NCBI RefSeq assembly: GCF_025612915.1
Contig: NC_069116.1
Span: forward strand, 24,643,051-24,707,050
Direction of reading: 5' to 3'
DNA length: 64,000 bases
Origin: Crassostrea angulata
Taxonomy: Eukaryota
Made by a program: the position numbers and the translations under genes. Under the pieces are notes generated by a model. It did not search any database and had not been told where the DNA came from. It saw nothing but the letters and a program-made list of their open reading frames with translations. The first letter of the stretch is position 1; every line of letters begins with the position of its first letter. Below are positions 20,961 through 50,246 of the stretch, piece by piece.

Positions 20961-21062
20961 GTAAATAACAGGTGGAACTTTTTTTCATGTTAAAGTGTTT
21001 ATTGTAATGATTGGATTGGATTTGAAGAATATTGCTAACTTATTTTTATAGGTGCTTCTTAT

Positions 21063-21104
21063 AGAGAGAGAGAGAGAGAGTGAGAGAGAGAGAGAGAGAG
21101 AGAT
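21063..21104. repeat. (GA)n microsatellite
   Basis: agagagag...tgagagag run. Confidence 0.95.
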
Positions 21105-21154
21105 GGGTTTTTTCCAGGGTACATAAGTGTATGCTTCTGTGGGTGTATTTACAG

Positions 21155-21325
21155 ATTGCATTACAAATGGACCAAGCTACACGGCCTGGGATCTCCCAGG
21201 TGCAGGTGGAGTGGGGCCCGCTCACTGATAAACTAGATCCACCCCTTCAGGCTCCCTGTAGGATCCCCAGCCTGTTCAGTGCAAATAGGCTTGTGGTGTA
21301 TGGATTTGTCAAGAATAGCACACAG
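21155..21325 (+). CDS. PARP4: PARP4-like exon 23
   Basis: Peptide ...APCRIPSLFSANRLVVYGFVKNSTQ matches human APAQVPSLFLNDRLLVYGFIPHCTQ. Confidence 0.85.
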
Positions 21326-21627
21326 GTATGTTTTGAAAGAATGACATTTTTTGTTAATTTACATGTAGGTATGCACAGTGATTAAATTACTATGCAATTC
21401 GTTGTTGATTTAAAGTGGGGTTTTTTTTTCAAACCAAAATACATTGTACAGATTTCAAGGGGAGATAATTGTGAAGCAGTCTAGGAAATAAGTTTGATAT
21501 TTGATAAGTAAAAGTGCTTGTACATGTATATAAAAACTAATATAGGTTTATTATTTAGGAACTATAATCATTTGTGTTGATTTATTATATTTGAAAGATT
21601 ATTTCATTCATAGTTTATTCTTTATAG

Positions 21628-21708
21628 GCAATTTTAAAGGCAAAGGTTGATGAACAGGAATTTGAAACAATTGTTTCTACAACAGAGCTGAACTTCACAG
21701 AGGGAAAG
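21628..21708 (+). CDS. PARP4: PARP4-like exon 24
   Basis: Peptide AILKAKVDEQEFETIVSTTELNFTEGK matches human ATLCALIQEKEFRTMVSTTELQKTTG. Confidence 0.85.
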
Positions 21709-22160
21709 GTAAAGAAGCATTAATATGACAAATGGTATCAAATTTTCTGTTTAATCACCATGCAAAACTACAGTATTAAGGTAATAATATACAGGGCAAA
21801 TATAGACTGACCTTGCTCCACTGTCACCAAAATATTTTCTAATCACTCAACTCATTCCTCGGCTCAAGTACTTTAAAGAAATTAAAGCACATAAAAATTT
21901 GAGGTAAAACCTCAGATTTGAGGCTGAGTATTGACTTGAGGAAAGTGACGACGGAGCCGTAGATTTACAGGTTGAAAAGGAAGTTTCATAAGTGTAAATA
22001 GATGATTATTGACCAATACCTACAAACTGCTATGATTCTTGAAATAGTCAATGTTAAGATTGGTAGAGTTTTGAGTATTTCAAATGTCATTTAATTTCAT
22101 CTATGAACATGAACTGAAAGATTTAACATTTGCTATGCACTTTCTGTTCTGTACCGTTAG

Positions 22161-22241
22161 ATGCTGCATCAGTTGGCGGCCAGGGCTGTTATAAGGGATT
22201 ATGAGGACGGGGTTCTGAGTGACAGCAAACTTCACCACAAG
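22161..22241 (+). CDS. PARP4: PARP4-like exon 25
   Basis: Peptide MLHQLAARAVIRDYEDGVLSD matches human MIHKLAARALIRDYEDGILHE. Confidence 0.85.
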
Positions 22242-22485
22242 GTATGGCACTGATCATGCACACTGTAATTCTTCATATCTACATCTTATATACATTAAAA
22301 TAAATCACACATGTTAAAATTATTCAGGATCCCCAATTCTCTCTGTTAAAATCATCTTGCATGTTAGTGAAACATCAAAATAATTTGGTTTGTAAAAGTA
22401 AAATTTGAAATTTGACCAGAGTTCTTGTCAAATAAATCAAGATCTGGAATTCGATTTTACTGATGAACTGGGTTTTTTCTTTCAG

Positions 22486-22587
22486 TTAATTAAACAAGAA
22501 AGAAAGCAGCATATCATTGAGCTCAGCAAAGAGTTTGGAATTGTGACTCCATACACCAGTTTTGTAGCCATAGAAGAGAGGACAGAG
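22486..22587 (+). CDS. PARP4: PARP4-like exon 26
   Basis: Peptide ...GIVTPYTSFVAIEERTE matches human SLITQFTSFVAVEKRDE. Confidence 0.8.
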
Positions 22588-22848
22588 GTAGAATATAAGG
22601 GATCTTTCACTGGGTCATGTTTGATATTTTGAAATTGCAAAAATTGTACCAGAGCAGTTTGTGGCAATTGTATGGAACATTGCAAAGTTCCTGAACACCT
22701 GATATTTTATATTTTAAGTACTGATATATGTACTTTTGTATTTGCAAATATGGTTTATGATGAATATACATTTTAAAAACAATGTACATGTATGATCATG
22801 TGTATTACCTGTAACTAAAAAAATATAGAAAATGATTTATTATTTTAG

Positions 22849-22953
22849 GGGGAAACAACTGAGGGCCCAAGTATTGAAGAGCTAGTAAACAATGAATCTG
22901 TGGATAATCTTACCTACATGGGATGGATCAATGCGGATAATATGGATGAAAAG
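22849..22953 (+). CDS. PARP4: PARP4-like exon 27
   Basis: Peptide ...VDNLTYMGWINADNMDEK matches human VDFLPYMSWQGEPQEA. Confidence 0.65.
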
Positions 22954-23398
22954 GTACAAATAGATAGAAAAACACCTGTACTATTTTAGTAACCCTGATA
23001 GCAAAGCGTCCAATTTGTATTCTTTCCTCTGAGAGTACATGTATCAGTATATTGTTAAGTGAACTGAAGGGAGAATTGTGATAGAACATACATGTATCAA
23101 TCCACTTATTTAGTACTTTGTGCTTAGATAAAGGCTTATTTCTAAGAAAATATTGTCTTTGATGAATATATGCCGGTAAATATATGATAAGGGAAATTTT
23201 CAGAAAGAGCAGTCAATTTTAAACAACGAAATGCTTTCTTAGGGGATTCATGTAGGAAATTGATTGTTAAAAGTAGGTTAAATTAACTAAGTTACTGTTA
23301 ATTTACATCAGTACGTTAGCTAAAAGAAACGGCCAAATCGTCTCCTATGAGAATTTGAGTCTGACATTGTCATGATTATTTTGTGCAGTCTGTAATTT

Positions 23399-23520
23399 TT
23401 CTTAGGTTGCTGTAGGTTTCAACCAATCGATAAACAGGGCGTGTAGATTTCAGTCCTGTCAGTTTCAGTTGTAGGTTTCAACCAATCAATGAATGGGCGT
23501 GTAGATTTCAGTTGTGTCAG
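23399..23520. repeat. Two tandem copies of a ~60-bp unit
   Basis: gtaggtttcaaccaatc.ataaa...gcgtgtagatttcag...gtcagtttc occurs twice. Confidence 0.7.
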
Positions 23521-23819
23521 TTTCTACAGAGCAATGAATTAACAATCTGTAAGAAATAGAGGGATTTAGACTCGGTAGATGTAAATATATGGTTTTGTTG
23601 TGGAAAAAAGGAAGAAATATAATGTTACAATAAAAAAGCATTAATTTGCCAGTGATTCACTTAAAACATTGCCGAATGACTTATCCCGCCATATCATCAA
23701 AGATGTTCAAATGAATGATAAAGAGTATATCAATAAAAATCATTGAAATTTTGAATGGGTTATATGCAAGGTAATTAATGTGCAATCAATATTTTAACCC
23801 AAATACTAAATACTGGTAG

Positions 23820-23966
23820 GATCCATTGGAGTGTGTAGAGGAACTACTACATAGGGCAAGCATTGCTGAGAGCTTCTCGCAGCTGGAGGTGGAGAGGTGC
23901 TACCTGTCTGTGCTGGATTACAGAAAGGATCTGATGCAGGAAGACAACAGGGACATGCTACAAAAG
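23820..23966 (+). CDS. PARP4: PARP4-like exon 28 (lineage-specific linker)
   Basis: Open frame with good acceptor and donor. Phase-consistent. Confidence 0.55.
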
Positions 23967-24270
23967 GTCAGGTGGTGGATCCAAAGACAGGGATTTCTTT
24001 ACAAATTAAATACAGTTGGTGGAGCCAAATTGAAGACAGAGATTTCTTTATAAATGAAATAACAACAATATTATTTCGGGACAATTTTTTATCTTTATAA
24101 ATTCTTCATAATTGATAAATTATGTTTTCATTGCTTGCTTAGTTAAGTACTTTTTTGCCATGCAGCCAAGGGTTTATTATCCGCTGTGATTATAAATCCC
24201 TTGGCTAGCAATTAAGATGGGTTTGGTATATAAACCTTTACATATTTTGTTGTGTTCATGTTTGTCACAG

Positions 24271-24358
24271 GTCTTGGAGAGGTCAGACAAGTTTTTCAGC
24301 AGTCAGCACTCAGAAAAAGCTCGAACACTTCAGCAACAGTTCCATAAATATTTATCCA
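24271..24358 (+). CDS. PARP4: PARP4-like exon 29 (linker)
   Basis: Acceptor ttgtcacag, donor GTAGGT. Phase-consistent. Confidence 0.5.
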
Positions 24359-24749
24359 GTAGGTCTTAAGTTGAATTATCTTAGACACACATCTTACCTG
24401 AATAAATTTATGATTTTCTGTCAGTATTCAATGGGATATTTTTTGGGGATTGGGGTACCAATGAAATCCATAAACATTTTGATCCTTTCATAAAATCTGA
24501 TGAACTACTGTAAATGTTTCACATTTGGCAGCTAGTGTATTCTATTTAACATTTTTTCGCCAGAAAGCCACTTCACTAAAATTAAATACTGTACATTGCA
24601 AATACCATGCATACATTAATATAAATAGTTTATCCAAATATACACTAAATCAAATCTATGCTAACCTGTTGAATAAATCAATTTTCACCTAATATCACTA
24701 TCGTACATTTACAGTACTGTATTTCAATATAATGTAATTTTCCTCCCAG

Positions 24750-24914
24750 TTCCTAAACAGCTTGAGGTGCGAACTCTGACTGGGAGGTCCATTCCTGTTG
24801 TGGCCGGCACAATGGCTCAATTAAAGTTAGAAATCATGGAGAAAGAGGGTCTGCCTGAGAGCAGCATACGATTAATTCATCATGGAAAACAACTAGAGGA
24901 CACAGACAATTTAG
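24750..24914 (+). CDS. PARP4: Ubiquitin-like domain, N-part (KQLEVRTLTGRSIPVVAGTMAQLKLEIMEKEGLPESSIRLIHHGKQLEDTDNL)
   Basis: Clear ubiquitin-fold signature (compare MQIFVKTLTGKTITLEV...[24 protein letters not shown]). It is in frame with the upstream PARP4 exons. Confidence 0.65.
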
Positions 24915-25653
24915 GTCATCTATTAATTTGTGATTTTTGTGTGTATTAAGTAACGTTTATTTATGCCAGATAAATGCCTGTAGAAACATGATTAGATTAA
25001 TCAAAAACTGAAACTTTGAAATAATTATTTGACAATTAAGTCTGAAAAAACCCAAAATATGTACTGTATCAAGAGATTGTTTGTTTATCATTATTCATAT
25101 ATGAAGCTTGAAATACGGTACATAGAATTCAAGAGCATTAAATATAAAAAAAAAAGTATTTGATCATTGTTAGTAACAATATAGTACATGTACTGCATAT
25201 ACCTCACTATACAATTTGGGCATTTGTTGTGATTTAATATTATACCAAAGTATATGCATGTTCACTGCAGCATTGTTCATGTATATAAACTGAACATATG
25301 TACATGCATATGTACTGTAAACTAACTTTTATTCGCATGCGAGAAAATCCCGCTGTTCGCAACAGCCTTGTTGAAGCAAGTATTTCTCACCGCCGACCAG
25401 CTATTTCTCTGGTGTATATTTTTTTAAGTAATCTGTGACTTGAATGCAAAAATTAGTTGCTGCAAAAGGTTTTATCTTTGGTAAATCGCGAAATAAAGTT
25501 GTCGCGAATAAAAGGTGGTTTCAGTATTTCATATAAATACACTGTACTAAGATTATGAGGAATATGATAATGTTGAGCAACATCACAATATTCCTTGTAA
25601 CCTTTGCAGGCTACCTACAATGTACATTCATTTATACTCCTATGGTTTTCCAG

Positions 25654-25772
25654 ATATGAGAGAACATTCCATTATTTTTATGGTTCAACGTTTGAGAGGA
25701 GGTGCACCTCCTCCTACTATGCATCACCAGGCAAGCTCTAGTCCAAGTGATACCCCGATCTACAGTGTAACG
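25654..25772 (+). CDS. PARP4: Ubiquitin-like domain, C-part ending RLRGG (DMREHSIIFMVQRLRGGAPPP...)
   Basis: Compare ubiquitin KESTLHLVLRLRGG. Perfect GTAAGT donor at 25773. Confidence 0.65.
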
Positions 25773-26418
25773 GTAAGTAGAATCAAATATAGGTACCGGT
25801 AAGATCGAAAAGTCACTGTTCACTAGCTAGAGCAAACAGTGCTTTGAAATTGCATGAATAAGAGTACCATTTTTCCATGACAGTCCAAATTTCACCAGTT
25901 TGTGAGGATGTAGTTTTATAAACAAATGATTTTTCTTGAATGGAAAACTATTCCAGTTCAATTTTTTTTTTTTTTTAATGACTTTGTAATCCATGAATAG
26001 TAATTACAACAGCATACTATGCTTGTTCAATATCTGCATGCATTAAAATTGTGTTTTCAGTGTGAAAGGACACAAAGACCTCTGTAGATGACCTTTATGT
26101 TTGAAAAGAAATTCAAAGCAGATTAATGCTGAACTTGAATTGTTAAAAAATTCAAGCTGCATTACATTTTGTGATTTTAATTAACTTCAAAGTTTACAAG
26201 AGTTTGAGATGTAATATATTTTATTAAGATTTTGGTATCTGAGGAATAATTATCTTGAATTGTAATAAATAAAGGAATGATTTAGTATTTGCTATTAGAT
26301 ACATTTTAGCTTGTGAATAATTTAATAACCTTAGTTACTAGTATATACTTATATACATATGTACTATGAGTAAATGCATGCATGAAGAATTCTATGATGG
26401 AGTTTTTGTTTTGTTTAG

Positions 26419-27592: not shown

Positions 27593-28939
27593 GTACATTT
27601 AATTTTTGTTAAATGAAAATTAATATAATGAGGAGATATATCTACAAGTATTAACCTTGCTCAAGTATTACATGTATATGCAAATAAAACTTGACAAACA
27701 AAAGTCCCATGAGAATTATTGGGGTTGAAGTGATCTAATAGCTGTGGAAATAAACATTATTTTTAATACATACATGTTACGGTATACAGGGTTATTTTCA
27801 CCCTTCTACACTTGCAAACGGTTTTGCCCTGTCTTATGGAGGCCGACTGTAGTTTTAATTACACTTTTTTTTGCACATTCTAGTATAATACGATGGATTG
27901 ATATTTTTATGAAATTTTCACGATGTCATTTATAAAATTGAACACGATAAACAAAATACAGATATAAATATTTAGATTTTTAAGAATTTTTTTTTTTTAA
28001 ACGATTTTTCCGTTGTGCGGTAGGGGAGCATTGCCATTGCGCTTATGACGTAATGATAAAATGAAGCTTTGTAGGAGTATGTTATAAGAAATAACATAAA
28101 AGAAAAAGTAAAAATTGTACAACGTTGAAATTTTATACACAGAATTATGCTATCTTCAGGGACATTTTTATAATTTTTGGAATAAATCCATTTTACCAAT
28201 CTTCATTCGTAATGCTCCAAATATATAGCAAACTTTGATGCATTTTAATATTTTGAGATGGCCCCCACTAAAAACAAGACGGTAGAATTTAGTATTTTTC
28301 ACATATAAGGTAGGAAATGATATTACCATCATATAACAATTTGAGAAAAAAAGCTATTGTAGTATTTTTTTTAATCTGCTTCGAAATGCTGAAAATGACA
28401 GTTTCCTATATATTCCTATTGTAAATGTACCTCTAATTTGAGATGGTCCCTAAAAAGAACCAGACGGTCGTTTTTCTTGAAACTTTGCAAAGTAACTAGA
28501 ATTGGTTTAAATGACATATGGTTAAAAAATGAAGAGTTTTGCTATTGTAGTTTTTCCGCAAAAAACCCCAAATCGACCTCCATAAATTCAACCAGACTCG
28601 CTTGTGTACTAAAGAAATAACTTGGAAAATTGGAATTCACCCAGTCTTAATTCGCCCACTGACAGCAAGGGCAAAAGGGGCAAAAATTAAATGGGGGCGA
28701 ATATTTCCCTGTATACAGTAATTCTTTTTCAAATAATTTTTTTACTTAATCTATGCATCTCTGAATTTTTTTTTAATCATGCTTTATAATTGACATATTT
28801 GAACACGTATGTACTTTAAAAAGTATCGTGGAGGACATTGCATTTTAGAATCTTTTAACTCTAAATAATAATTCAGTTACTTTGACCCTAAAGATAGTGT
28901 GAATATCAAAGAAGTTAAAAGTAACAGCAACAATGTCCA

Positions 28940-28942
<3 letters not shown>

Positions 28943-28975
<33 letters not shown>

Positions 28976-29081
28976 ATTCTGATCACATTTTGTCCGTCGT
29001 CCGTCTGTCCGTCTGTCTTACCGTCCGTCTGTCCGTCTGTAAACTTTTTACATTTTGAACTTCTTCTCCAAAACTGCTTAT

Positions 29082-29113
<32 letters not shown>

Positions 29114-29300
29114 TTATGGGAGGGCAAATATAAATTGCAAAAATTAAAGTCCGATCTGTATTCAAAGCGGAGAAAACCTTGAAAGTGTAGAAAAAGGGGG
29201 GTGCATTTGTAAAAATCTTCTTCTCAAGAACTACCGAGGCAAATTCAACGTACTTTAGCATAAATTATCCTTATGGGAAGGAAAATATAAATTGCAAAAA
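28943..29300 (+). mobile_element. Pearl-like TIR element, 5' portion only
   Basis: It shares the first ~150 bp (ttagctcacctgagctgaaagctcaagtgagctattctg + (GTCCGTCT)n) with the element at 50214. No matching 3' TIR is found. Confidence 0.5.
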
Positions 29301-30289
29301 TTAAGGGGTAATTTTGTTTCAAATCGAAGTTATTACGAAAATAATAATAAAGGAAAGGCGTGTTTCAATCGGGCTCGGCATCCGGTAAAATGGGTAGGCA
29401 AGACTTGGAGGTATAGAATAGGGTACTTTTTATATCCCATAACCAGGCACTATAACCAGGATGTGCGCATGCGTGAATCAACTTTCCATCGGGATCGGTA
29501 AACGATTGGGAGGAAATTCGAAAGCTATTTGGAGGAACTTCGAACTGATATATGTGCAATTTAAAAATGCGATTTTTATATGAAAAATATGATCAGAAGT
29601 GATTAAAATGTTATGTACATTAGATTTTACACCAAAAAATTAAATAAATAATTGAGAGAACAATCAAAATCAATGTTACAGGAAAACAACAGGCACTTAG
29701 CATCGGAGGGGGGGGGGGGGTTGGAATGGGGGCAGGGACAGGGGGACGGGACTGCCCCCCCCCTCCAGCACACTTTTTTCTCGCAGCAAATATTTTTCTT
29801 GGATTTACTTATAAAAAAGGAAATTAACATACAGTTGCACCCCCCCCCCCCCAATGTTTTTGGGACCATGTAAAATTTGAAATGAAAGAGAGGAAATAAA
29901 CTGTGAAATTGAAGTTAAAGGTACACTTAGCCCCCTACCCCCACGGATTAGGATTTTCAATTATTTAAAAAGAATTTTTGAGTTGGTTTTTTTTTTCAAG
30001 GCAAGATTGGATGAGTCTGCCCTCAACCCACTTTGCTACGATGCTAGGTGCCTGAACAAAATATCATGGTTTCATTACATACATGTATGCTAGTATAAAG
30101 ACTTTATGTAAACCAATATTATCTCGTGCATTGTTCCATTCACCAGGTTCTACAAATACCTTAGTCCAAAATAAATAAAAAATCCAAGACTAAGAGGGGA
30201 AGAAAGAGGAAATCTATTTTCCTTTTTTTCTTTTTACTCAGGAGCTATTTTGTTGGGGGGGGGGGGGGTATTAGGGGTGAACAGGTCAC

Positions 30290-33200
30290 TGACCCCTTGT
30301 AGATCTACACATGACCTATCACCAGGGTCTGTATACACATAACCAGGGTCAGTATACCCATCACCAGGGTCAGAGTACGTATCACCAGAGTCTGTGTGCC
30401 AATCACCAGAGTCTGTACACCCATAACCAGGGCTAGTATACCCATCACCAGGGTCTCCATACCTATCACCAGGGTCAGAGTACGTATCACCAGAGTCTGT
30501 GTGCCCATCACCAGAGTCTGTACACCCATAACCAGGGTCAGTATACCAATCACCAGGGTCTCCATACCTATCACCAGGGTCAGAGAACGTATCACCAGGG
30601 TCTGTGTGCCCTTCACCAGAGTCTGTACACCCATAACCAGGGCCAGTATACCCATCACCAGGGTCTTCATACCTATCACCAGGGTCAGAGTACGTATCAC
30701 CAGAGTCTGTGTGCCCATCACCAGAGTCTGTACACCCATAACCAGGGTCAGTATACCCATCACCAGGGTCTTCATACCTATCACCAGGGTCAGAGAACGT
30801 ATCACCAGAGTCTGTGTGCCCATCACAAGTGTCAGTATACACATAACCAGGGCCAGTATACCCATCACCAGGGTCTTCATACCTATCACCAGGGTCAGAG
30901 TACGTATCACCAGAGTCTGTGTGCCCATCACCAGAGTCTGTACACCCATAACCAGGGTCAGTATACCCATCACCAGGGTCTTCATACCTATCACCAGGGT
31001 CAGAGAACGTATCACCAGAGTCTGTGTGCCCATCACAAGTGTCAGTATACACATAACCAGGGCCAGTATACCCATCACCAGGGTCTTCATACCTATCACC
31101 AGGGTCAGAGTACGTATCACCAGAGTCTGTGTGCCCATCACCAGGGTCTGTATACCCATAACAGGGCCAGTATACCTATCACCAGGGTCTCCATACCTAT
31201 CACCAGGGTCAGAGTACGTATCACCAGAGTCTGTGTGCCCATCACCAGAGTCTGTACACCCATAACCAGGGCCAGTATACCCATCACCAGGGTCTCCATA
31301 CCTATCACCAGGGTCAGAGTATGTGTCACCAGAGTTTGTGTGCCCTTCACCAGGGTCTGGATACCCATAACCAGGGTCAGTATACCCATCACCAGGGTCT
31401 TCATACCTATCACCAGGGTCAGAGTACGTATCACCAGAGTCTGTGTGCCCATCACAAGTGTCAGTATACACATAACCAGGGCCTCCATACCTATCACCAG
31501 GGTCAGAGTACGTATCACCAGAGTCTGTGTGCCCTTCACCAGAGTCTGTACACCCATAACCAGGGCCAGTATACCCATCACCAGGGTCTTCATACCCATC
31601 ACCAGGGTCAAAGTACGTATCACCAGAGTCTGTGTGCCCATCACCAGGGTCTGTATACCCATAACAGGGCCAGTATACCCATCACCAGGGTCTCCATACC
31701 TATCACCAGGGTCAGAGTACGTATCACCAGAGTCTGTGTGCCCATCACCAGAGTCTGTACACCCATAACCAGGGCCAGTATACCCATCACCAGGGTCTCC
31801 ATACCTATCACCAGGGTCAGAGTATGTGTCACCAGAGTTTGTGTGCCCATCACCAGGGTCTGGATACCCATAACCAGGGTCAGTATACCCATCACCAGGG
31901 TCTTCATACCTATCACCAGGGTCAGAGTACGTATCACCAGAGTCTGTGTGCCCATCACCAGGGTCTGTACACCCATAACCAGGGCCAGTATACCCATCAC
32001 CAGGGCCTCCATACCTATCAGCAGGGTCAGAGTACGTATCACCAGAGTCTGTGTGCCCATCACCAGAGTCTGTACACCCATAACCAGGGCCAGTATACCC
32101 ATCACCAGGGTCTCCATACCTATCACCAGGGTCAGAGTATGTGTCACCAGAGTTTGTGTGCCCATCACCAGGGTCTGGATACCCATAACCAGGGTCAGTA
32201 TACCCATCACCAGGGTCTCCATACCTATCACCAGGGTCAGAGTACGTATCACCAGAGTCTGTGTGCCCATCACCAGAGTCTGTACACCCATAACCAGGGC
32301 CAGTATACCCATCACCAGGGTCTCCATACCTATCAGCAGGGTCAGAGTACGTATCACCAGAGTCTGTGTGCCCTTCACCAGAGTCTGTACACCCATAACC
32401 AGGGCCAGTATACCCATCACCAGGGTCTTCATACCTATCACCAGGGTCAGAGTACGTGTCACCAGAGTTTGTGTGCCCATCACCAGGGTATGGATACCCA
32501 TAACCAGGGTCAGTATACCCATCACCAGGGTCTTCATACCTATCACCAGGGTCAGAGTACGTATCACCAGAGTCTGTGTGCCCATCACAAGTGTCAGTAT
32601 ACACATAACCAGGGTCTCCATACCTATCACCAGGGTCAGAGTACGTATCACCAGAGTCTGTGTGCCCTTCACCAGAGTCTGTACACCCATAACCAGGGCC
32701 AGAATACCCATCACCAGGGTCTTCATACCCATCACCAGGGTCAAAGTACGTATCACCAGAGTCTGTGTGCCCATCACCAGGGTCTGTATACCCATAACAG
32801 GGCCAGTATACCCATCACCAGGGTCTCCATACCTATCACCAGGGTCAGAGTACGTATCACCAGAGTCTGTGTGCCCTTCACCAGAGTCTGTACACCCATA
32901 ACCAGGGCCAGTATACCCATCACCAGGGTCTCCATACCTATCACCAGGGTCAAAGTACGTGTCACCAGAGTTTGTGTGCCCATCACCAGGGTCTGGATAC
33001 CCATAACCAGGGTCAGTATACCTATCACCAGGGTCTCCATACCTATCACCAGGGTCAGAGTACGTATCACCAGAGTCTGTGTGCCCATCACCAAAGTCTG
33101 TACACCCATAACCAGGGCCAGTATACCCATCACCAGGGTCTCCATACCTATCACCAGGGTCAGAGTACGTATCACCAGAGTTTGTGTGCCCATCACCAGG

Positions 33201-34295
33201 GTCTGTACACCCATAACCAGGGTCTGTATACCCATCACCAGGGTCTCCATACCTATCACCAGGGTCAGCGTGCGTATCACCAGAGTCTGTGTGCCCATCA
33301 CCAGGGTCTGTACACCCATATCCAGGGTTGGTATACCCATCACGAGGGTCTCCATACCTATCACCAGTGACTGAGTGCGTGTCACCAGAGTCTGTGTGCC
33401 CATCACCAGGGTCTGTACGCCAATAACCAGGGTCAGTATACCCATCATCAGGGTCTCAATACCTATCACCAGGGTCATAGTACGTGTCACCAGAGTCTGT
33501 GTGCCTATCACCAGGGTCTGTACATCCATAACCAGGGCCAGTATACCCATCACCAGGGTCTCCATACCTATCACCAGGGTCATCATATCCATCACTAGAG
33601 TTTGTGTGCCCAACAATGGGGTCTGTATACCCATCACCAGGGTCAGTATACCAATCATCCGGGTCTGTACACCCATAACCAGGGTCAGTATACCCATCAC
33701 CAGGGTCTTCATATCTATCACCAGGATCAGAGTACGTATCACCAGAGTCTGTACACCCATAACCAGGGTCAGTATACCCATCACCAGGGTATGTACACCC
33801 ATAACCAGGGTTATTATACCCATCACCAGGGTATGTACACCCATAACCAGGGTCAGTATATCCATCACCAGGGTCTCAATACCTATTACCAGGGTCAGAG
33901 TACGTATCACCAGAGTCTGTGTGCTCATAACCAGGGTCTGTACATCCATAGCCAAAGTCAGTATACCCATCACCCGGGTCTCAATACCTATCACCAGGGT
34001 CATAATGCCTATCACCAGAGTCAGAGTACGTATCACCAGAACTGTAAACATATCACCTGGGTCATTATACCTTTTAGTAGGGTCAGTGTTCGTAGTACTA
34101 GGGTCTGTGTGCCCATCATCATGGTCTGTATATTCATAACAAAGGTCAGTTTACCCTTCACCAGGGTCTTAATACTTTTCACCAGGATAGTGTACGCATG
34201 CATCAATAGGGTCTGTGTGCCCATCACCAGGGTCAGTATACCTAACACAACAGTCAGTGCACTTATCATTAGGGTTTGTATATCCATTACCTGAG
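30290..34295 (-). repeat. Satellite array, left arm (21-bp subunit, 105-bp higher-order unit; reverse orientation)
   Basis: Unit rc(ggtgatgggtatactggccct ggttatgggtgtacagactct ggtgatgggcacacagactct ggtgatacgtactctgaccct ggtgataggtatggagaccct). Copies are more degenerate toward the centre. The unit has no stop codon in any of the six frames. Confidence 0.9.
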
Positions 34296-37200
34296 TCAGG
34301 TAATACTGACCCTGTTGATAAGTAGAGTGACCCTGGTGATAGGTATACTGATCATGGTGAAGAGCACACATACCTTGGTGATACGTACACTCATGATCCT
34401 TGTGATAGGTATACTGTCTCAGGTGATGGTTATACTTACCCTGGTTATAGATTTTGAGATTCTGGTGTTACGTAAGCTGACCTTATAATATCTACACTTT
34501 TGTGTATACCGACTCTGGTGATGGATACATACTGACCCCTGTGATTGGCTACAGACCCTTGTGATACGTACACTGACTCTGTCGATAGGTATACTGACCC
34601 TGGTGATAGAGAATGTGATAGATATACCGGTGATAAATGTACTGACTCTTGTGATAGGTATACTGACCTTGGAGATGGGCCCTCAGACCCACGGATGCGT
34701 ACACTGACACGGCCGTTAGGTAAACTAACTCTGGTGATAGGTAATAGGTACAGTTATCCTGGTGAAAGTCTACTGATCAAGGTAATGGATGTACAAACCC
34801 TGAAGATAAGTGCACTGACTGTTGTGATAGATATACTGACTCTAATGATGGGCACACAGACCCTATTGATTCGTAAACTATTCCTGGTGATAAGTATTTA
34901 GACCCTGGTGATGGGCATACTGGCCCTGGTTATGGGTGTACAGACTCTGGTGATGGGCACACAGACTCTGGTGATACGTAGTCTGACCCTGGTGACTGGT
35001 ATGATGACACTGGTGATGGGTATACTGACACTGGTTATGGGTGTACAGACTCTGGTGATGGGCACACAGACTCTGGTGATACGTACTCTGACCTTGGTGA
35101 TAGGTATGGAGACCCTGGTGATAGGTATACTGACCCTGGTTATGGGTATCCAGACCCTGGTGATGGGCACACAAACTCTGGTGACACGTACTCTGACCCT
35201 GGTGATAGGTATGGATACCCTGGTGATGGGTATACTGACCCTGGTTATGGGTCTACAGACTCTGGTGATGGGCATACAGACTCTGGTGATACGTACTCTG
35301 ACCCTGGTGATAGGTATGGAGACCCTGGTGATGGGTATACTGGCCCTGTTATGGGTATACAGACTCTGGTGATACGTACTTTGACCCTGGTGATGGGTAT
35401 GAAGACCCTGGTGATGGGTATACTGGCCCTGGTTATGGGTGTACAGACTCTGGTGAAGGGCACACAGATTCTGGTGATACGTACTCTGACCCTGTTGATA
35501 GGTATGGAGACCTTGGTGATGGGTATACTGGCCCTGGTTATGTGTATACTGACACTTGTGATGGACACACAGACTCTGGTGATACGTACTCTGACCCTGG
35601 TGATAGGTATGAAGACCCTGGTGATGGGTATACTGACCCTGGTTATGGGTATCCAGACCCTGGTAATGGATACACAAACTCTGGTGACACGTACTCTGAC
35701 CCTTGTGATAGGTATGAAGACCCTTGTGATCGGTATACTGGCCCTGGTTATGGGTGTACAGACTCTGGTGAAGGGCACACAGACTCTGGTGATACGTACT
35801 CTGACCCTGGTGATAAGTATGAAGACCCTGGTGATGGGTATACTGGCCCTGGTTATGGGTATACATACCCTGGTGATGGGCACACAGACTCTGGTGATAC
35901 GTACTCTGACCCTGGTGATAGGTATGGAGACCCTGGTGATGGGTATACTGACCATGGTTATGGGTATCCAGACCCTGGTGATGGGCACACAAACTCTGGT
36001 GACACATACTCTGACCCTGGTGATAGGTATGGAGACCCTGGTGATGGGTATACTGGCCCTGGTTATGGGTGTACAGACTCTGGTGATGGGCACACAGACT
36101 CTGGTGATACGTACTCTGATCCTGCTGATAGGTATGGAGACCCTGGTGATGGGTATACTGACCCTGGTTATGGGTATCCAGACCCTGGTGATGGGCACAC
36201 AGACTCTGGTGACACGCACTCTGACCCTGGTGATAGGTATGGAGACCCTGGTGATTGGTATACTGGCCCTGGTTATGGGTGTACAGACCCTGGTGATGGG
36301 CACACAGACTCTGGTGATAAGCACGCTGACCCTGGTGATAGGTATGGAGACCCTGGTGATGGGTATACTGACCCTGGTTATGGGTGTACAGACCCTGGTG
36401 AAGGGCACACAGACTCTAGTGATACGTACTCTGACCCTGGTGATAGGTATGGAGACCCTGGTGATGGGTATACTGGCCCTGGTTATGGGTGTACAGACTT
36501 TGGTGATGGGCACACAGACTCTGGTGATACGTACTCTGACCCTGGTGTTAGGTATGGAGACCCTGGTGATAGGTATACTGACCCTGGTTATGGGTATCCA
36601 GACCCTGGTGATGGGCACACAAACTCTGGTGACACGTACTCTGACCCTGGTGATAGGTATGGAGACCCTGGTGATGGGTATACTGGCCCTGGTTATGGGT
36701 GTACAGACTCTGGTGAAGGGCACACAGACTCTGGTGATACGTACTCTGACCCTGGTGATAGGTATGGAGACCCTGGTGATGGGTATACTGGCCCTGTTAT
36801 GGGTATCCAGACCCTGGTGATGGGCACACAGACTCTGGTGATACGTACTTTGACCCTGGTGATGGGTATGAAGACCCTGGTGATGGGTATACTGGCCCTG
36901 GTTATGGGTGTACAGACTCTGGTGATGGGCACACAGACTCTGGTGATACGTACTCTGACCCTGCTGATAGGTATGGAGGCCCTGGTGATGGGTATACTGG
37001 CCCTGGTTATGGGTATACAGACCCTGGTGATGGGCACACAGACTCTGGTGATACGTACTCTGACCCTGGTGATAGGTATGGAGACCCTGGTGATGGGTAT
37101 ACTGACCCTGGTTATGGGTATCCAGACCCTGGTGATGGGCACACAAACTCTGGTGACACATACTCTGACCCTGGTAATAGGTATGGAGACCCTGGTGATG

Positions 37201-38290
37201 GGTATACTGGCCCTGGTTATGGGTGTACAGACTCTGATGATGGGCACACAGACTCTGGTGATACGTACTCTGACCCTGGTGATAGGTATGGAGACCCTGG
37301 TGATGGGTATACTGACCCTGGTTATGGGTATCCAGACCCTGGTGATGGGCACACAGACTCTGGTGACACATACTCTGACCCTGGTGATAGGTATGGAGAC
37401 CCTGGTGATGGGTATACTGGCCCTGGTTATGGGTGTACAGACTCTGGTGATGGGCACACAGACTCTGGTGATACGTACTCTGACCCTGGTGATAGGTATG
37501 GAGACCCTGGTGATGGGTATACTGGCCCTGTTATGGGTATACAGACCCTGGTGATGGGCACACAGACTCTGGTGATACGTACTCTGACCCTGGTGATAGG
37601 TATGGAGACCCTGGTGATAGGTATACTGGCCCTGTTATGGGTATACAGACCCTGGTGATGGGCACACAGACTCTGGTGATACGTACTCTGACCCTGGTGA
37701 TAGGTATGAAGACCCTGGTGATGGGTATACTGGCCCTGGTTATGTGTATACTGACACTTGTGATGGGCACACAGACTCTGGTGATACGTTCTCTGACCCT
37801 GGTGATAGGTATGAAGACCCTGGTGATGGGTATACTGACCCTGGTTATGGGTATCCAGACCCTGGTGATGGGCACACAGACTCTGGTGATACGTACTCTG
37901 ACCCTGGTGATAGGTATGAAGACCCTGGTGATGGGTATACTGGCCCTGGTTATGGGTGTACAGACTCTGGTGAAGGGCACACAGACCCTGGTGATACGTT
38001 CTCTGACCCTGGTGATAGGTATGGAGACCCTGGTGATTGGTATACTGACCCTGGTTATGGGTGTACAGACTCTGGTGATGGGCACACAGACTCTGGTTAT
38101 ACGTACTCTGACCCTGGTGATAGGTATGGAGACCCTGGTGATGGGTATACTAGCCCTGGTTATGGGTGTACAGACTCTGGTGATGGGCACACAGACTCTG
38201 GTGATACGTACTCTGACCCTGGAGACCCTGGTGATGGGTATACTGACCCTGGTTATGTGTATACAGACCCTGGTGATAGGTCATGTGTAG
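34296..38290 (+). repeat. Satellite array, right arm (same 21/105-bp unit, forward orientation)
   Basis: As above. Called ORFs up to 708 aa in all frames (GDGYTDP..., TLVMGIQ..., PITRVCT..., YHQGQST...) are artefacts of a stop-free unit. Recurrent 1-bp indels (ggccctgttatggg) switch frames. Confidence 0.9.
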
Positions 38291-39927
38291 ATCTACAAGG
38301 GGTCAGTGACCTGTTCACCCCTAATACCCCCCGCCCCCCCAACAAAATAGCTCCTGAGTAAAAAAAAAAGGATAATAGATTTCCTCTTTCTTCCCCTCCT
38401 AGTCTTGGATTTTTTATTTATTTTGGACTAAGGTATTTGTAGAACCTGGTGAATGGAACAATGCACGAGATAATATTGGTTTACATAAAGTCTTTATACT
38501 AGCATACATGTATGTACTGAAACCATGATATTTTGTTTAGGCACCTAGCATCGTAGCAAAGTGGGTTGAGGGCAGACTCATCCAATCTTGCCTTGAAAAA
38601 AAAAACCAACTCAAAAATACTTTTTAAATAATTGAAAATCCTAATCCGTGGGGGTAGGGGGCTAAGTGTACCTTTAACTTCAATTTCACAATTTATTTCC
38701 TCTCTTTCATTTCAAATTTTACATGGTCCCAAAAACATTGGGGGGGGGGGGGTGCAACTGTATGTTAATTTCCTTTTTTATAAGTAAATCCAAGAAAAAT
38801 ATTTGCTGCGAGAAAACGTGTGCTGGAGGGGGGGCAGTCCCGTCCCCCTGTCCCTGCCCCCATTCCAACCCCCCCCCCCCCCTCCGATGCTAAGTGCCTG
38901 TTGTTTTCCTGTAACATTGATTTTGATTGTTCTCTCAATTATTTATTTAATTTTTTGGTGTAAAATCTAATGCACATAACATTTTAATCACTTCTGATCA
39001 TATTTTTCATATAAAAATCGCATTTTTAAATTGCACATATATCAGTTCGAAGTTCCTCCAAATAGCTTTCGAATTTCCTCCCAATCGTTTACCGATCCCG
39101 ATGGAAAGTTGATTCACGCATGCGCACATCCTGGTTATAGTGCCTGGTTATGGGATATAAAAAGTACCCTATTCTATACCTCAGACTTGGCCTGGGCAAA
39201 ACAAAAGGTTGGCAGTTATTAATCTGCCAATCTCATTAAAATTTCGGGATATTTGATGGACTAGTATATTTGTATTCGCTGTAGATATTGCTGCAAAATA
39301 ATGCGTATTTGGAATTGACGATTGCAGATCTGCCCCGGCATTTATTTTGCCACGGCCCGGGTTTGCATACCCATTTTACCAAGACTCGTATTCCATACTT
39401 CTAAAACGAGGTTCTTTGTTTAAAGCAGCCATGATATTATACGAAAAAGGGTCGATCTGACTATGATGAATTTGCTTGTTGTGCAACAGTTTGCATATGA
39501 AGGGAAGTTTTGAAACATGAAAAATATATTGGTGCCGATTTTGTGAAGTAAATTGAGGCTAAATATTTCAATGCGTTGACAGTTTTCACACATGACGTTG
39601 GTGTTAGCTTGTTCTGATTTTCGTTTCGTTTTCATTATTTATGCTTTGTAACCTGGAAACTATCGTCTGTATTTCGTGATTTTTCGTATCAAATCAATCA
39701 GAGACTTCGGTAAATCAAACAGTTACGTTAACTGTTTACCTGCGCAAATTAAGCAAAATCTGATGTAGGGGTACTGAAATACAATTCATTCTATCGGTAA
39801 TTCGGCATTATCTTTTGCATAATGGTAGATTAATGCAATAGGTTTTGTTGAGATGCTCGGCATTTTCTCTAGTTTATTCAGTTTAAATAGAGTTTGATAT
39901 CGCTTACGGAAACATATAGGTATATCC

Positions 39928-40255: not shown

Positions 40256-41671
40256 TTAGCTCACCTGAGGATGGGGCAACAATGGGGGGGTCGAAGTTTA
40301 ACATGAATATATAGAGTAACTCTTAAGAAATCTTCTTCTCAGAAACTAATCGGCCAGGAAAGCTGAAACTTGTGTGGAAGCATCTTCAGGTAGTGTAGAT
40401 TCAAAGATGTGAAAATCATGACCCCTGGGGGTAGGGTGGGGCCACAATGGAGGGTTCAATTTTTTTTACATATGAATATAAAAAGTAAATCTTTAAAAAT
40501 CTTCTTCTCAGAAACTAATCGGCCAGGAAAGCTGACACTTGTGTGGATGCATCCTTAGGTAGTGAAGATTCAAATTTGTGAAAATCATGACCCCCGAGGG
40601 TAGGGTGGGGCCACAATAGGGGATCGACGTTTTACATAGGAATATATACAGTAAATCTTTAAAAATCTTCTTCTCAAAAACTAATCAGACAGGAAAGCTG
40701 ACACATGTGTGGATGCATCCTCAGGTAGTGTAAATTTTAAAGTTGTGAAAATCATGACCCCCGGGGGTAGGGTGGGGCCACAATGTGGGATCGAAATTTA
40801 ACATAAGAATATATAGAGTAAATCTTTAAAAATCTTCTTCTCAGAAACTAATTCGCCGGCAAAGCTGGAACTTGTGTGGAAGCATCCTCAGGTAGTGTAG
40901 ATTTTAAGTTGTGAAAATCATGACCCCTGGGGGTAGGTTGGGGCCACAATGGGGGATCGAAGTTTAACATATGATTATATACAAAAAAAATTTTAAAAAT
41001 CTTCTTCTCAGAAACTAATTAGCCAGGAAAGCTAAAACTTTTGTGGAAGCATACTCAGGTAGTGTAGATTCAAATTTGTGAAAACCATGACCCCTGGGGG
41101 TAGGTTTGGGCCATATTGGGAGGTCGATGTTTTACATAGGAATAAACAGAGTTATTCTTTAAAAATCTTCTTCCCAGAAACTAATCGGCCAGGAAAGCTG
41201 AAACTTGTGCGAAAGCATCCTCAGGTAGTGTAGATTCAAAGTTGTGAAAATAATGATCCCCAGGGTTAGGGTGGGGCCACAAGGGGGGGGGGGGGTCAAA
41301 GTTTAACAAAGGAATATATAGGGTAAATCTTTAAAAATCTTCTCAGAAACTAATCAGCCGGATGATTCTTTATAATTGTTAAGACTTTGGCCCCAGGACA
41401 ATTCTTTGGCCTCACGAGAAGGTTCAGAGTTTGATGTACGTTTATATCCCATATATAAACTATTGTTAGGGATCTTTTTTAGATCTGCAATACTCAACAT
41501 ATGATATGACTATAAAATCATCCTGTTAGAAAAGGGACTAATGATTATAAACATAAGAATATCCAGGGGAAAATGGATTTTATTTATACAGGATTTACAT
41601 GAATTATTGTACATTGTCCAGATAGTTTGTATTATGACTCCATTGAGATGATTTTATCATACCTCTTGTTC

Positions 41672-41921: not shown

Positions 41922-44636
41922 GAATACAAGAAAAGTTTGGTGGATCAGCAAGAAGGACCAAATGTAATAGCTGAACAGTTGAATGATGTTGGCAACATCG
42001 CAGGTGTGTCAATAACAGCAGTACTCAATGAATCAAACTTAGATAATGTAGAGTTTGACATCGATGTGACACAAATGGAAAATGAGCCAGATGAAGTTGT
42101 AGAAACTTCCTCTCTTAAGGAATTAAATCAGATTTCAAAACCAACAATTCAAAGTTCCAGTGCTTCTAAGAAATGGGGGTTTTCCTTAGAAGCTGCTTTA
42201 AGTCCTACCCTTCAGACATACAGTTCCACCTCACCAGTCTTCAGTCCTGCTTCACCAGCATATGGTTCTACCTCTGCAGGATTTTGCCCCACCTCACCAG
42301 CATACAATCCCACCTCACCAGCATACAGTCCCACCTCACCAGCATACAATCTCACCTCACCAGCATACAGTCCCACCTCACCAGCATACAATCCCACCTC
42401 ACTAGCATTTAGACCTACCTCACCAATCTTAAAAGTGTCAAAAGCATTCAATCCCACTTCACCAGCTTATCTTTCTCCATCTATCACTCTCCGTCCCACT
42501 TTTCCAGCAATCTGTCTTAACTCCATATCACAAACATACTTCTCCACTACAGCAGCAGTCTCTCAAACCGTGCCACCACAAAGTTTCACTGGCAACATAG
42601 ATCAGAAAGCAGACCAAGAATATTCAGATGATGATATTCATGTTGAATCTGACAGTGAAGATGATGATTTTGAGGTGAATGATGACAGGGGAAGTAGTTT
42701 AGAGAGAAGACCTAGACCAATAGACAAATGCTTTGATGAAAATGAAGATATTGAGGAGAATGAGAGTAGTGCTAATATAATTAAGAGATATGGAGAACAA
42801 GAAAAATCTAATTATTCAGAAGGCAGGGGTTCAGAAAAAAGAAATAGATATTTGCAAAGTGAAGATCAAAGTTTTAAAAGTAGTAACAGTCCAGTTTTAA
42901 AGAGAAGAGGAAGGAGTAGAAACAGGATATATAACAGTAGACAAGAAGAAAGAGGAGTCAGAAGTTGTGATAGGAGCTGGAATAGAAGAGACAGAAATAG
43001 TGATAGAAGCGGAGATAGTAGCACCAAAAATATGGATAGAAGCTGGGATAGTATAACCAGAAGCAGAGATAGTAGCACCGAAAGTAGGAATAGGAGCTTG
43101 GATAGAAGATCCAGAAGTAGGGATAGAATCAGGGTTTCTAGATCCAGAATAAGGGATAGAAACTGGGATAGTATAACAAGAAGCAGGGAAAGTAGCACCA
43201 AAAGTAGGAATAGAAGAGACAGAAGTCATAATGGGACCTTTGATAGAAGATCAAGAAGTGGGGATAGAAGCTGGGATAGTATAACCGGAAGCCGGGATAG
43301 TAGCACCAAAAGAAGGGATAACAGCTCCAGAAGTAGGGATAGAAGCTGTGATAGTATAACCAGAAGCAGGGATAGTAGCACCAACAGTAGGGATAGAAGC
43401 TTGGATAGTAAAACCAAAAGCAAGGATATTAGCACCAAAAGAAGGGATAGAAACTTTGGTAGAAGGGACAGAAGTAGGGTTAGAAACTTTGATAGTATAA
43501 CCAGAAGCAGGGATAGTAGCTTGGGTAGAAGGGACAGAAGTAGAGATATGAACTTGGATAGTAGAACCAGCAGTAGGGATAAAAGATCCAGTAGAGATAG
43601 CAGCAGTGATTGCAGCACCAAAAGTAGGGATAGAAGCTTGGATAGAAGAGACAGAAAATGTGATAGAAGCTCGGATAGTAGAACCAGAAGTAGGGATAGA
43701 AGCAGGGATAGTAGAACCAGAAGTAGGGATAGAAGCAGATATACAAGAACCAAAAGTAGAGACTGGAGCTGGTATAGAAGAGACAGAAGTTATGATAGGA
43801 GCTGGGATAGAAGAGACCGAAGTAGGGATAGGAGCTTGGAGAGTAGAGACAGAAGTTATGATGGGAGCTGTACTAGGAAATCAAGAAGTACGGATAGAAG
43901 CTGGGAGAGAAGAGACAGAAGCTGGGATAGGGAAAATAGAAGAAGAGAAAGAAGAGACAGAAGTAGAGATAGATGCATGGATAGCAGTAGAGATAGAAGC
44001 TGGGATAGAAGAGACAGAAGATGTGATAGAAGCTGGGATGGAAGAAGCAGAAGTAGGGATAGAAGCAGGGATATTAGAACCAGAAGTAGGGATAGAAGCA
44101 GAGATACTAGAACCAAAAGTAGAGATTGGAGCTGGTATAGAAGAGACAGAAGTTATGATAGGAGCTGGGATAGAAGAGACCAAAGTAGGGATAGGAGCTG
44201 GGAGAGTAGAGACGGAAGTAGGAACAGAAGCTGGGATAGAGAAAACAGAAGAGATAGAAGAGACAGAAGAAGGGATCAAAGCTGGGGTAGAAGAGACAGA
44301 AGCAGGAACAAAAGCTGGGATAGTAGAGTCAGACGCCGCAATAAAAGCTGGGATGAAAGAGAAAATAGAAGAGATAGAAACATTTACAGAAAATCCAAAA
44401 GAAGAGATTGGAATTGGGAAAGTAGTAAAATAGGTAGTGATAGAAGCTGGGATAGAGACAGAAGCATTAAAGATAGGAGTAAAAAATTGTATGGAAAGAA
44501 AACAAGAGGCAGGAAAAGAAAAACAAGTAAGAAAAGTGATGATAGTAAGATGCCACAGAGAACCAAAGAACCGTATAATCTGAAGGGAACTCAGTTTGAA
44601 CTAGAGCTATCAGAAGAAGGTGAGATAATGGATTAA
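41922..44636 (+). CDS. Large low-complexity exon (acidic N-part, ~10 Pol II CTD-like heptads, ~600-aa RS/RD/W region) ending in stop
   Basis: The 899-aa ORF opens immediately after an acceptor (ttatattatag|GAA) at 41921. It carries ~10 Pol II CTD-like heptads ([18 protein letters not shown]) and a long RSRDRS/DRSW-repeat region. The in-frame TAA at 44634 is followed by AATAAA at 44649. An alternative GTGAGA donor at 44620 would continue into downstream PARP4 exons. Confidence 0.6.
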
Positions 44637-47934: not shown

Positions 47935-49700
47935 ATCATCATCGGCAAAAGAACATCTCACATTTCTCATCACTATGATTAAAAACATCTCATGTTCATC
48001 ATCAGGAACATATCACATTTCTTATCACTGTCACAGGAACATCTCACATTTCACAGGAATGTATCACATTTCACAGGAACATCTCACACATTTCTCATTA
48101 CTGTAACAGTAACATCTAACATTTCTCACCACTGTTACAGGAACATATGTCACATTTCTCATCACTGTCACAGGAACATATCTCACATTTCTCATAACTA
48201 TCACAGGAACATCTCACATTTCTCACCACTGTTACAGGAACATATCTCACATTTCCCATCACTGTCACAGGAACATATCTCACATCTTCATCACTGTGAC
48301 AGGAACATCTCTCACATTTCTCATCACTGTCACAGGAACATATCTCACAAATCTCATCACTATCAAAGGAACATATCTCACATTTCTCATCACTGTAACA
48401 GGAACATCTCACTTTTTTCACCACTGTCACAGGAACATATCTCACATTTCTCGTCACTGTGACAGGAATATATCTCTTATTACTGTCATGGGAACATCTC
48501 ACATTTCTCATCACTGTCACAAAAACATCTCACATTTCTAATCACTGTCACAGAAACACATCTCACATTTCTCTTCACTGTCACAGGAACATATCACACA
48601 TTTCATGTTACTGTCACAAGGACATCTCACATTTCTCATGACTGTCACAGAAATATCTCACATTTTTCATGACCGTCATAAGAGTGTCTCACATCCCTCA
48701 TGTTATTTTTTTTATACAGTTTCTACTACACAGAACTTGAGGGAACAAATCAATATCATTGCTGCAACAAAAGCATTATATTCTTAGTTTTTACATGCAT
48801 ATTCTTAAGCAGTGGTAATAGGTCATCATGTGAAAGTGATATTGGTGAGGGATCAGTACACAGAAAGTTCATACTTTGCGTTATTCAAACATGCATGTGT
48901 ATATTTATCATATGGGTCCCTTTTGGCACTCTCACTTTCACAGGAACATATCTCACATTTCTTATCACTGTCACAGAAACATCTTTTTCTTGTTACTGTC
49001 ACAGTAACATAACGCACATTTCTTATCATTGTAACATCACTGTAACAGGAACATCTCACATTTTTCACCACTGTCACAGTAACATATCTCACATTTTTCA
49101 TTACTCACAGGAACATCTCACATTTCTCATCACTATCACAGGATCATATCTTTCATTACTGTCATGGGAAAATCTCACATTTCTCGTCACTGTCACAAAA
49201 ACGTCTCTCATTTCTCGTCACTGTCCCATTAAAGCATCTCACATTTCTCGTCACTGTCACAAAAACATCTCTCATTTCTTGTCACTGTCACAGGAACATA
49301 TCACACATTTCTCATCACTGTCACAGGAACATCTCACATTTCTCATCACTGTCACAGGAACATATCTCACATTTCATGTCACTGTCACAAGAACATCTCA
49401 CATTCCTCATGACTGTCACAGAAATATTTCACATTTTTCATCACCGTCATAAGAGTGTCTCACATTCCTCATGTTGTTTTTTTATACAGTTTCTACTACA
49501 CAGAACTTCAGAAAACAAATCAATATCATTGCTGCAACAAAAGCAATACATTCTTATTTTTTACCTGCATTTTCTTTACTTTATACTACTTAAGCAGTTG
49601 TGAATAAGTCATCATGTGAAATTGATATTGGTGAGGGATCATGCAGTACACAGAAATGTCATACTTTGCGTTATTCAAACATGCATGTGAATGTTTATCA
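47935..49700. repeat. ~33-bp minisatellite (cacaggaacatatctcacatttctcatcactgt) in two arrays, each followed by a duplicated ~230-bp unique segment
   Basis: Arrays at ~47935-48690 and ~48935-49460. Segments 48700-48930 and 49470-49700 are ~85% identical. ORFs 47992-49452 are repeat artefacts. Confidence 0.85.

Positions 49701-50210: not shown

Positions 50211-50213
<3 letters not shown>

Positions 50214-50246
<33 letters not shown>

Follow-up and report, generated by a model that had tools for sequence, protein, structure and literature searches.

A probable foldback-type transposon with satellite-built arms at the PARP4 locus of Crassostrea angulata

Introduction

Records of foldback-type elements come mainly from Drosophila and a few other arthropods, and from nematodes, sea urchins and plants. 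Tetris, a foldback transposon of Drosophila virilis, is composed of a flanking domain (at most 866 bp), a domain of tandem repeats and a middle domain, is bordered by target-site duplications (TSDs) of 8-9 bp and contains no open reading frame (ORF) (PMC4079207). In Galileo, a foldback-like element of the P superfamily in Drosophila, the two terminal inverted repeats (TIRs) of one copy differ in repeat number (PMC3573991), and binding sites of the THAP transposase lie near the end as well as in the tandem repeats of the TIRs (PMC3688188). No description of a foldback-type element in molluscs was found in the searchable literature (Repbase-type libraries being outside its scope), and bivalve papers mention such elements only by citing Drosophila work. 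Here, we analyze a 64-kb stretch of Crassostrea angulata DNA (contig NC_069116.1, positions 24,643,051 to 24,707,050; hereafter the window, with all coordinates counted from its first letter) and describe a 9.77-kb inverted structure at 29409-39182. This structure probably represents one copy of a DNA transposon of the foldback type that is non-autonomous and lies within PARP4, where an intron is the most likely site.

Results

Architecture of the element

The closest described plan is that of Tetris. The two have in common long TIRs of three parts, whose outer unique domain measures up to 866 bp in Tetris and ~905 bp here, and a short non-coding middle; moreover, in both a short stretch of the flank also occurs in the tandem repeat, and the repeats are a potential seed of satellite DNA (PMC4079207). 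They differ in the repeat unit (~220 bp in Tetris, 21 bp in 105-bp higher-order repeats here), in the length of the TIRs (to 1.7 kb versus 4.4-4.9 kb) and in the host (an insect versus a mollusc), and there is no sequence similarity between them. The parts of the oyster structure are the following.

29401-29408, no strand: left flanking direct repeat AGACTTGG (putative TSD), the same 8 bases being present at 39183-39190
29409-30313, plus strand: left flanking domain, the unique outer part of the left TIR; 98.3% identical to the reverse complement of 38278-39181 and 71-79% to Logan contigs L001-L009 and L020-L022
29439-29447 and 29452-29460, plus strand: two subterminal copies of ATMACCAGG, 31-52 nt from the end, mirrored at 39130-39138 and 39143-39151
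30314-34299, minus strand: left array of 21-bp units in 105-bp higher-order repeats, ~180 monomers, regular to ~33200 and then increasingly degenerate to 34299
34300-34772, plus strand: middle domain, oriented like the right arm and unmatched in the left arm; made of degenerate 21-bp repeats with ~0.75 identity to the unit types
34773-38277, plus strand: right array of 21-bp units in 105-bp higher-order repeats, degenerate to ~34900 and regular beyond, colinear with the left array
38278-39182, minus strand: right flanking domain, the unique outer part of the right TIR; its terminal 19-mer GAGGTATAGAATAGGGTAC is restricted to the two ends of the element
39183-39190, no strand: right flanking direct repeat AGACTTGG, matching the left copy

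Tandem Repeats Finder reported arrays with a 21-bp period at 30314-34242 and 34883-38205 in opposite orientations, and scored the latter also as a 105-bp repeat (31.7 copies, 91% matches). Self-identity of both arrays was 0.73 at lag 21 and 0.82-0.84 at lag 105, and the monomers were of five types, arranged A-B-C-D-E. GC content rises from ~0.33 to 0.50-0.53, and GC skew changes sign at ~34 kb. An earlier reading of the same letters (hereafter the original prediction) had recognized the two inverted arrays with both periods as well as the reverse-complementary unique flanks of ~900 bp, and had placed the meeting point of the arrays at ~34295, in agreement with the switch of orientation that we observed at ~34296-34300. 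The structure is far beyond chance expectation. No further copy of the 21-bp unit or of the flank was detected within the window, and no N gaps are present across the structure.

The claim that the palindrome is perfect did not hold. Complementarity around the best ungapped axis of symmetry was 70%, and a gapped alignment of the arms (29408-33708 versus 39182-34858) gave 92.5% identity with 90 gaps. The outer flanks of ~905 bp (29409-30313 versus 39181-38278) were 98.3% identical, differing by ~9 substitutions and several changes of homopolymer length. Compared monomer by monomer, the arrays consisted of colinear blocks with 95-99% identity, separated by indels of exactly 1 or 5 monomers, and the inner part of the left arm contained ~40 monomers more than the right. 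Arm length is 4.9 kb on the left (29409-34299) and 4.4 kb on the right (34773-39181). The innermost pairing joins 34299 with 34773 and leaves an unpaired center of 473 bp, in which no ORF was found. Degeneracy toward the center, which had been described as progressive, is indeed gradual in the left arm (0.74 rising to 0.93) but sets in abruptly at ~34900 in the right arm. In Drosophila FB elements the repeats become increasingly regular inward; the reverse is seen here, where homogeneity is highest among the outer units and the inner ones are degenerate. Within the array, 12 positions of the 21-bp unit (GACYCTGGTKAT) are nearly invariant and the remaining 9-nt block is variable, and indels in the regular arrays are limited to a single recurring 1-bp deletion and a unit truncated in frame.

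Each flanking domain also contains a 19-bp inverted repeat pair (CAGGCACTTAGCATCGGAG / CTACGATGCTAGGTGCCTG) at 29690-30054, mirrored at 38536-38900, which is flanked by AACAA and encloses long runs of G and C. This pair with its contents may be a nested miniature element.

Ends of the element and the flanking direct repeat

Inverted homology ends sharply at 29408/9 and 39181/2, and the sequences outside the two ends are unrelated. Immediately outside both ends lie the 8 identical bases AGACTTGG (29401-29408 and 39183-39190), for which the chance expectation is 6.5e-4 (random position pairs in the window, with 2 nt of slack per boundary). The repeat may be read as a perfect 7-bp duplication, AGACTTG, after which the inverted repeat begins GAGGTATAG; as a 9-bp duplication with one mismatch, after which it begins AGGTATAG; or as 8 bp with a one-base asymmetry. 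If the repeat arose by insertion, the site before this event would have been ...GGTAGGCAAGACTTGGCCTGGGCAAAAC... (also given as ...GGTAAAATGGGTAGGCAAGACTTGGCCTGGGCAAAACAAAAGG...), with a single AGACTTG(G). A paralogous empty site was sought in the window, where the sole homology of the flanks (28938-29231 versus 50209-50493) stops 177 bp short of the insertion point.

The terminal 19-mer occurs at the two ends and nowhere else in the window. The satellite core ATMACCAGG is found twice per terminus, whereas 0.017 occurrences were expected across both flanking domains, and the 12-mer CCCATAACCAGG at the subterminal site matches array sequence exactly. As a sign of transposase recognition, the presence of this core at the termini is suggestive only. 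With the terminal 23-mer and a repeat 29-mer as probes, scans at the DNA level gave no match in the metagenome collection.

Very long TIRs thus form most of the element, they are built of tandem repeats whose copy number varies between the arms, and a putative TSD abuts both ends, as in the foldback class. The original prediction, which described a palindrome of satellite arrays, missed this likely identity: the object is most likely a discrete, TSD-bounded element of the foldback type.

Comparison with other repeat-bearing transposons

Similar to the oyster element, Galileo has long, internally repetitive TIRs, and its arms are of unequal repeat number (PMC3573991). An end-proximal, transposase-binding motif is repeated in the tandem repeats of its TIRs (PMC3688188), as is the core motif, a putative counterpart, here, and many Galileo copies consist of two TIRs without a transposase (PMC3573991, PMC3688188). 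The 7-bp TSD of Galileo corresponds to the AGACTTG reading. On the other hand, autonomous copies and a THAP transposase are known for Galileo and none was found here, and Galileo TIRs measure at most ~1.2 kb with repeats of ~136-210 bp. Drosophila FB and the Mutator/Foldback elements, such as Tm1, have arms made almost wholly of short tandem repeats and variable in length, their single strands snap back to a hairpin, and their 9-bp TSD corresponds to the reading with one mismatch (PMC3169594). They differ in that no MULE transposase was detected here.

Helitron-type elements are not known to make a TSD. The bivalve Helentron derivatives pearl/CvA and Cg_HINE resemble the present element in being dispersed and in carrying an internal satellite-like array; however, in those elements a central array is bordered by conserved ends that are not inverted and that bear subterminal hairpins, and long TIRs are absent (PMC7492417, PMC11136912). 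The kilobase TIRs and the flanking direct repeat of the present element do not fit a satellite carrier derived from Helitrons or Helentrons.

Absence of coding constraint in the arrays

The 21-bp unit had been thought to lack stop codons in all six frames. In the unit consensus four of the six are open; in sense frame 2 nearly every monomer contains a TGA, and in one antisense frame a TAA recurs once or twice in each 105 bp. The frame that encodes the acidic heptad GDGYTDP (hereafter the GDG frame) ends, as predicted, in a unique C-terminal tail, ...DRSCVDLQGVSDLFTPNTP(P/R)PPNKIAPE followed by a stop. It is broken by one identical 1-bp deletion (CCCTG-TTATGG) in seven copies, of which the four in the right arm (35344, 36792, 37526 and 37630) had been noticed before and three lie in the left arm (32802, 31669 and 31166). 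Because the units with this deletion stand in long, near-identical contexts common to both arms (up to 97-99%), the deletion is an inherited variant and not a random sequencing error. In addition, in-frame stops interrupt the GDG frame in the inner arms, and no start codon, signal peptide or upstream exon was found for it.

Substitution patterns gave no sign of selection on this frame. Among 87 distinct unit variants, 16 synonymous changes were observed versus 20.5 expected from a base-matched null (P 0.96). Among 71 substitutions between the arms, third codon positions of the GDG frame were the least variable (14/71) and 9 synonymous changes were seen versus 15.6 expected (P 0.99); no frame showed a synonymous excess in this comparison. 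The synonymous copy variants mentioned in the original prediction (GAT/GAC and ACG/ACA) are real but not enriched in the GDG frame, and ACG to ACA is a CpG transition. A synonymous excess among unit variants was present in the antisense frame RVCIPIT (P 0.001) and, weakly, in the sense frame LVMGIQT (P 0.05); it was not replicated between the arms and was set aside as exchange between unit types.

Protein searches were consistent with this picture. A search of 5.8 billion proteins returned one weak match, the Crassostrea gigas gene model P0001, and a combined query of all open array frames, run against the word-indexed proteins, had no match. With HMMER, 1.8 billion representative proteins were searched exhaustively; of the 215 matches, the top ones were unrelated low-complexity proteins with other DPG-type heptads, such as MSDPGVE, GYSSPGS and QQPGEGS. 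No true homologue of the GDGYTDP heptad was found in either collection, the other matches being ORFs from further copies of the element. A Pfam match to LbR_Ice_bind (the grass antifreeze beta-roll) of an ORF in the LVMGIQT frame (35351-36817, plus strand) reached 79 bits with no single significant stretch, and was rejected as almost certainly an artefact of the 7-residue period. Rfam and tRNA scans of the window gave no matches. A coding function of the array is rejected, and the preference for a non-coding satellite over a shell-matrix gene expressed in the original prediction is borne out by the frame breaks, the lack of synonymous excess and the lack of protein relatives.

Relatives in public sequence data

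The weaker HMMER matches include short ORFs from public read assemblies, in which a few degenerate heptads are followed by the tail ...DPGDxSxVDLQGVxDLxTPNTPPPP..., which corresponds to the junction of array and flank in our element. Twelve Logan contigs (L001-L009 and L020-L022) align across this junction with 71-79% identity over 0.9-1.1 kb, of which several hundred bases fall in the flanking domain; their source runs include ERR13986114, ERR13913659, SRR6063173, SRR6063026, ERR3721505 and others. The flank-plus-array module occurs in at least three lineages, mutually 67-75% identical, and run SRR6063026 alone holds two of them (74.6% identical to each other). Since the junction recurs across unrelated runs and two lineages are found in one run, the module is an old, multicopy, dispersed repeat. 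A 162-bp piece of the flanking domain (38605-38766) is missing from the related copies L007-L009, and no Pfam domain was detected on the related contigs.

A different situation is represented by contigs L010-L019 (e.g., from SRR6063097), a single 1.8-kb contig that recurs in many runs (85 index blocks). Its array is degenerate, spans 900 bp and shares the 21-mer consensus of our element, but no flanking domain accompanies it; this locus appears to be an ancient relic, or else a solo array that became fixed in the species concerned. Within the element, the 12-nt core is clearly more conserved than the 9-nt variable block; in related copies, whose arrays are degenerate, the difference is not clear (0.63 versus 0.56), and we make no claim of constraint on the core across lineages. 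In the C. gigas model P0001, residues 3-62 correspond to two antisense unit frames and residues 62-107 to the sense frame; as antisense frames are followed by a sense frame, the model carries related repeats in both orientations. P0001 was not located on any contig.

Host gene and single-strand folding

The host gene is represented upstream of the element by one feature row.

16083-25800, plus strand: host gene exons with PARP catalytic, VIT, VWA and ubiquitin-like domains, based on Pfam matches and PARP4 homologues

Exons at 16.0-21.0 kb encode PARP catalytic, VIT and VWA domains (PF00644, PF08487 and PF13768/PF00092) in that order and on one strand. The best PARP4 homologue, from the bivalve Solemya velum, is 49% identical (E 1e-177); all PARP4 matches listed are shorter than ~1,200 amino acids, and a full-length orthologue may be missing from the database searched. 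Downstream of the VWA exons, exon-like segments at ~24677-25800 (plus strand) encode a ubiquitin-family domain (PF00240, E 2.4e-9), which is not known as a part of vertebrate PARP4.

On the other side of the element, an open frame of 899 codons (41937-44636, plus strand, i.e., the same strand) begins with ~10 heptads YSPTSPA similar to those of the RNA polymerase II C-terminal domain (a 21-bp unit repeated 10 times, 42217-42425; PF05001, E 1.6e-10), and then encodes a tail that is rich in arginine, serine and aspartate and built of 33/66/99-bp repeats. The frame may belong to PARP4 as its last exon, or be a gene of its own. The predicted position in an intron of PARP4 is thus backed by the PARP4 exons upstream and is likely, not proven, being conditional on this downstream ORF belonging to the same gene.

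The locus had also been proposed as a hotspot for hairpin or cruciform formation. For the central 1.4 kb, single-strand folding gives a long imperfect hairpin (-397 kcal/mol) that encloses a multibranched loop of ~400 nt; snap-back, whether in replication or in pre-mRNA, is accordingly plausible. Extrusion of a cruciform from duplex DNA would be disfavored by the asymmetric, degenerate center of 473 bp.

Other repeats in the window

Short satellite-like arrays are unusually frequent in this 64-kb stretch. One 166-167-bp repeat family forms two arrays downstream of the element, at 40268-41359 (6.5 copies, 83%) and 50465-51161 (4.2 copies, 94%), and the segment just left of the element, 28938-29231, is 78.6% identical to 50209-50493, the lead-in to the second of them. 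These arrays may be copies of a satellite-carrying element of oyster type. Further arrays are found at 48003-49472, 57045-57296 and 57782-58254, with periods of 31-33/64/97 bp, 53 bp and 43 bp (11 copies, 96%). Two features resembling mobile elements were observed near the start of the window: ORFs at 9-1665 (plus strand) resemble reverse-transcriptase fragments, with no Pfam match and no termini in common with the foldback element, and 5330-7333 (plus strand) holds a hAT-like transposase remnant (DUF659 and a weak hAT dimerisation domain; ORF 5918-7333), preceded by an ORF with a possible BED-type zinc finger, judged by eye.

Discussion

We interpret 29409-39182 as probably a foldback-type transposon because it combines a discrete insertion, a flanking duplication, kilobase inverted arms, a non-coding middle, a terminal motif, unequal repeat numbers in the two arms and dispersed relatives. 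By analogy with Galileo, Tetris and FB, such an element would be moved in trans by a transposase encoded elsewhere. This enzyme would recognize the terminal or subterminal motif, and the copies in the arrays might serve as additional binding sites, the candidate recognition motif in the unit being CCCATMACCAGGG. After insertion, the flanks of the two arms would have come to differ by ~1% through substitution, and the arrays through unequal exchange of entire units. The apparent acidic heptad protein would be a by-product of a 21-bp period that is open in four frames.

Several observations weigh against this interpretation. A second complete copy, one with termini and a TSD of its own, was not retrieved; related contigs are only 1-2.8 kb long and none reaches a terminus, and some of them, such as L003 and L010, have the array in a single orientation within 1-2 kb. 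The sole hint of an inverted arrangement outside this locus is one protein model, P0001. No transposase or autonomous partner was identified, and a TSD of 7, 8 or 9 bp fits P/Galileo, hAT or Mutator/FB alike; the hAT-like element at 5.3-7.3 kb was considered as a partner and rejected, as it has no terminal sequence in common with the foldback element.

Three other explanations were considered. The dispersed flank and the 21-bp array might have been inverted and duplicated in place without any mobility, by template switching or hairpin-primed repair, or two copies might have come to lie head to head, in which case the 8-bp direct repeat would be coincidental. The single orientation of related copies elsewhere over 1-2.8 kb agrees with such a local rearrangement, and an asymmetric, degenerate center would fit an old junction. 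However, coincidence is difficult to reconcile with an exact 8-base repeat at both ends (6.5e-4), termini are symmetric and carry the core motif, and the arms are by far each other's closest relatives (98.3% versus 67-78% between other lineages); we consider this origin unlikely. An error of assembly is very unlikely. Long tandem arrays are prone to assembly errors and bivalve genomes are highly heterozygous, so a chimeric fold-back read or a mis-join of two haplotypes could in principle give a false inverted duplication of a single flank-plus-array locus, and the arms do differ mainly in unit copy number and homopolymer length. Nevertheless, a fold-back would have mirrored the outside flank too, whereas the sequences outside 29408 and 39183 are unrelated to each other and appear to carry on the host gene on a single strand. 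A direct repeat borders the structure, ~1% of flank positions differ by substitution, N gaps are absent, and an independent oyster gene model has both repeat orientations.

The remaining explanation, a divergent pair of genes or recent pseudogenes for a secreted acidic GDGYTDP heptad protein of the shell-matrix or adhesive type, duplicated head to head, appears highly improbable. It would account for a GDG frame that is open for up to 489 codons and closes in a unique tail with a stop, for the strictly maintained 21-bp period (apart from the recurring 1-bp deletion and the in-frame truncated unit of the regular arrays) and for some variants being synonymous. Yet seven inherited copies of a frame-breaking deletion together with stops in the inner arms, synonymous changes below expectation in both tests, the lack of a start codon, signal peptide and upstream exon, the absence of true homologues among billions of proteins, and the TSD and TIR architecture all argue against genes.

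Beyond the single copy, one might envisage a foldback family of oysters and other bivalves whose 21-bp units act as a multi-site platform for transposase binding and as a satellite nursery, with a hairpin of over 4 kb in PARP4 pre-mRNA serving as input to small-RNA or A-to-I editing pathways. As a whole this proposal is quite doubtful; the parts that are supported are the existence and the architecture of the family. The practical consequences concern annotation and assembly: long heptad frames that stay open in such arrays should not be annotated as genes, and this locus is a place where assemblies are likely unreliable. If true, a bivalve family with 4-kb, satellite-filled arms would be an example of transposons seeding and spreading satellite DNA in genomes where satellites are unusually scattered, and would be a candidate source of inversions and breakage.

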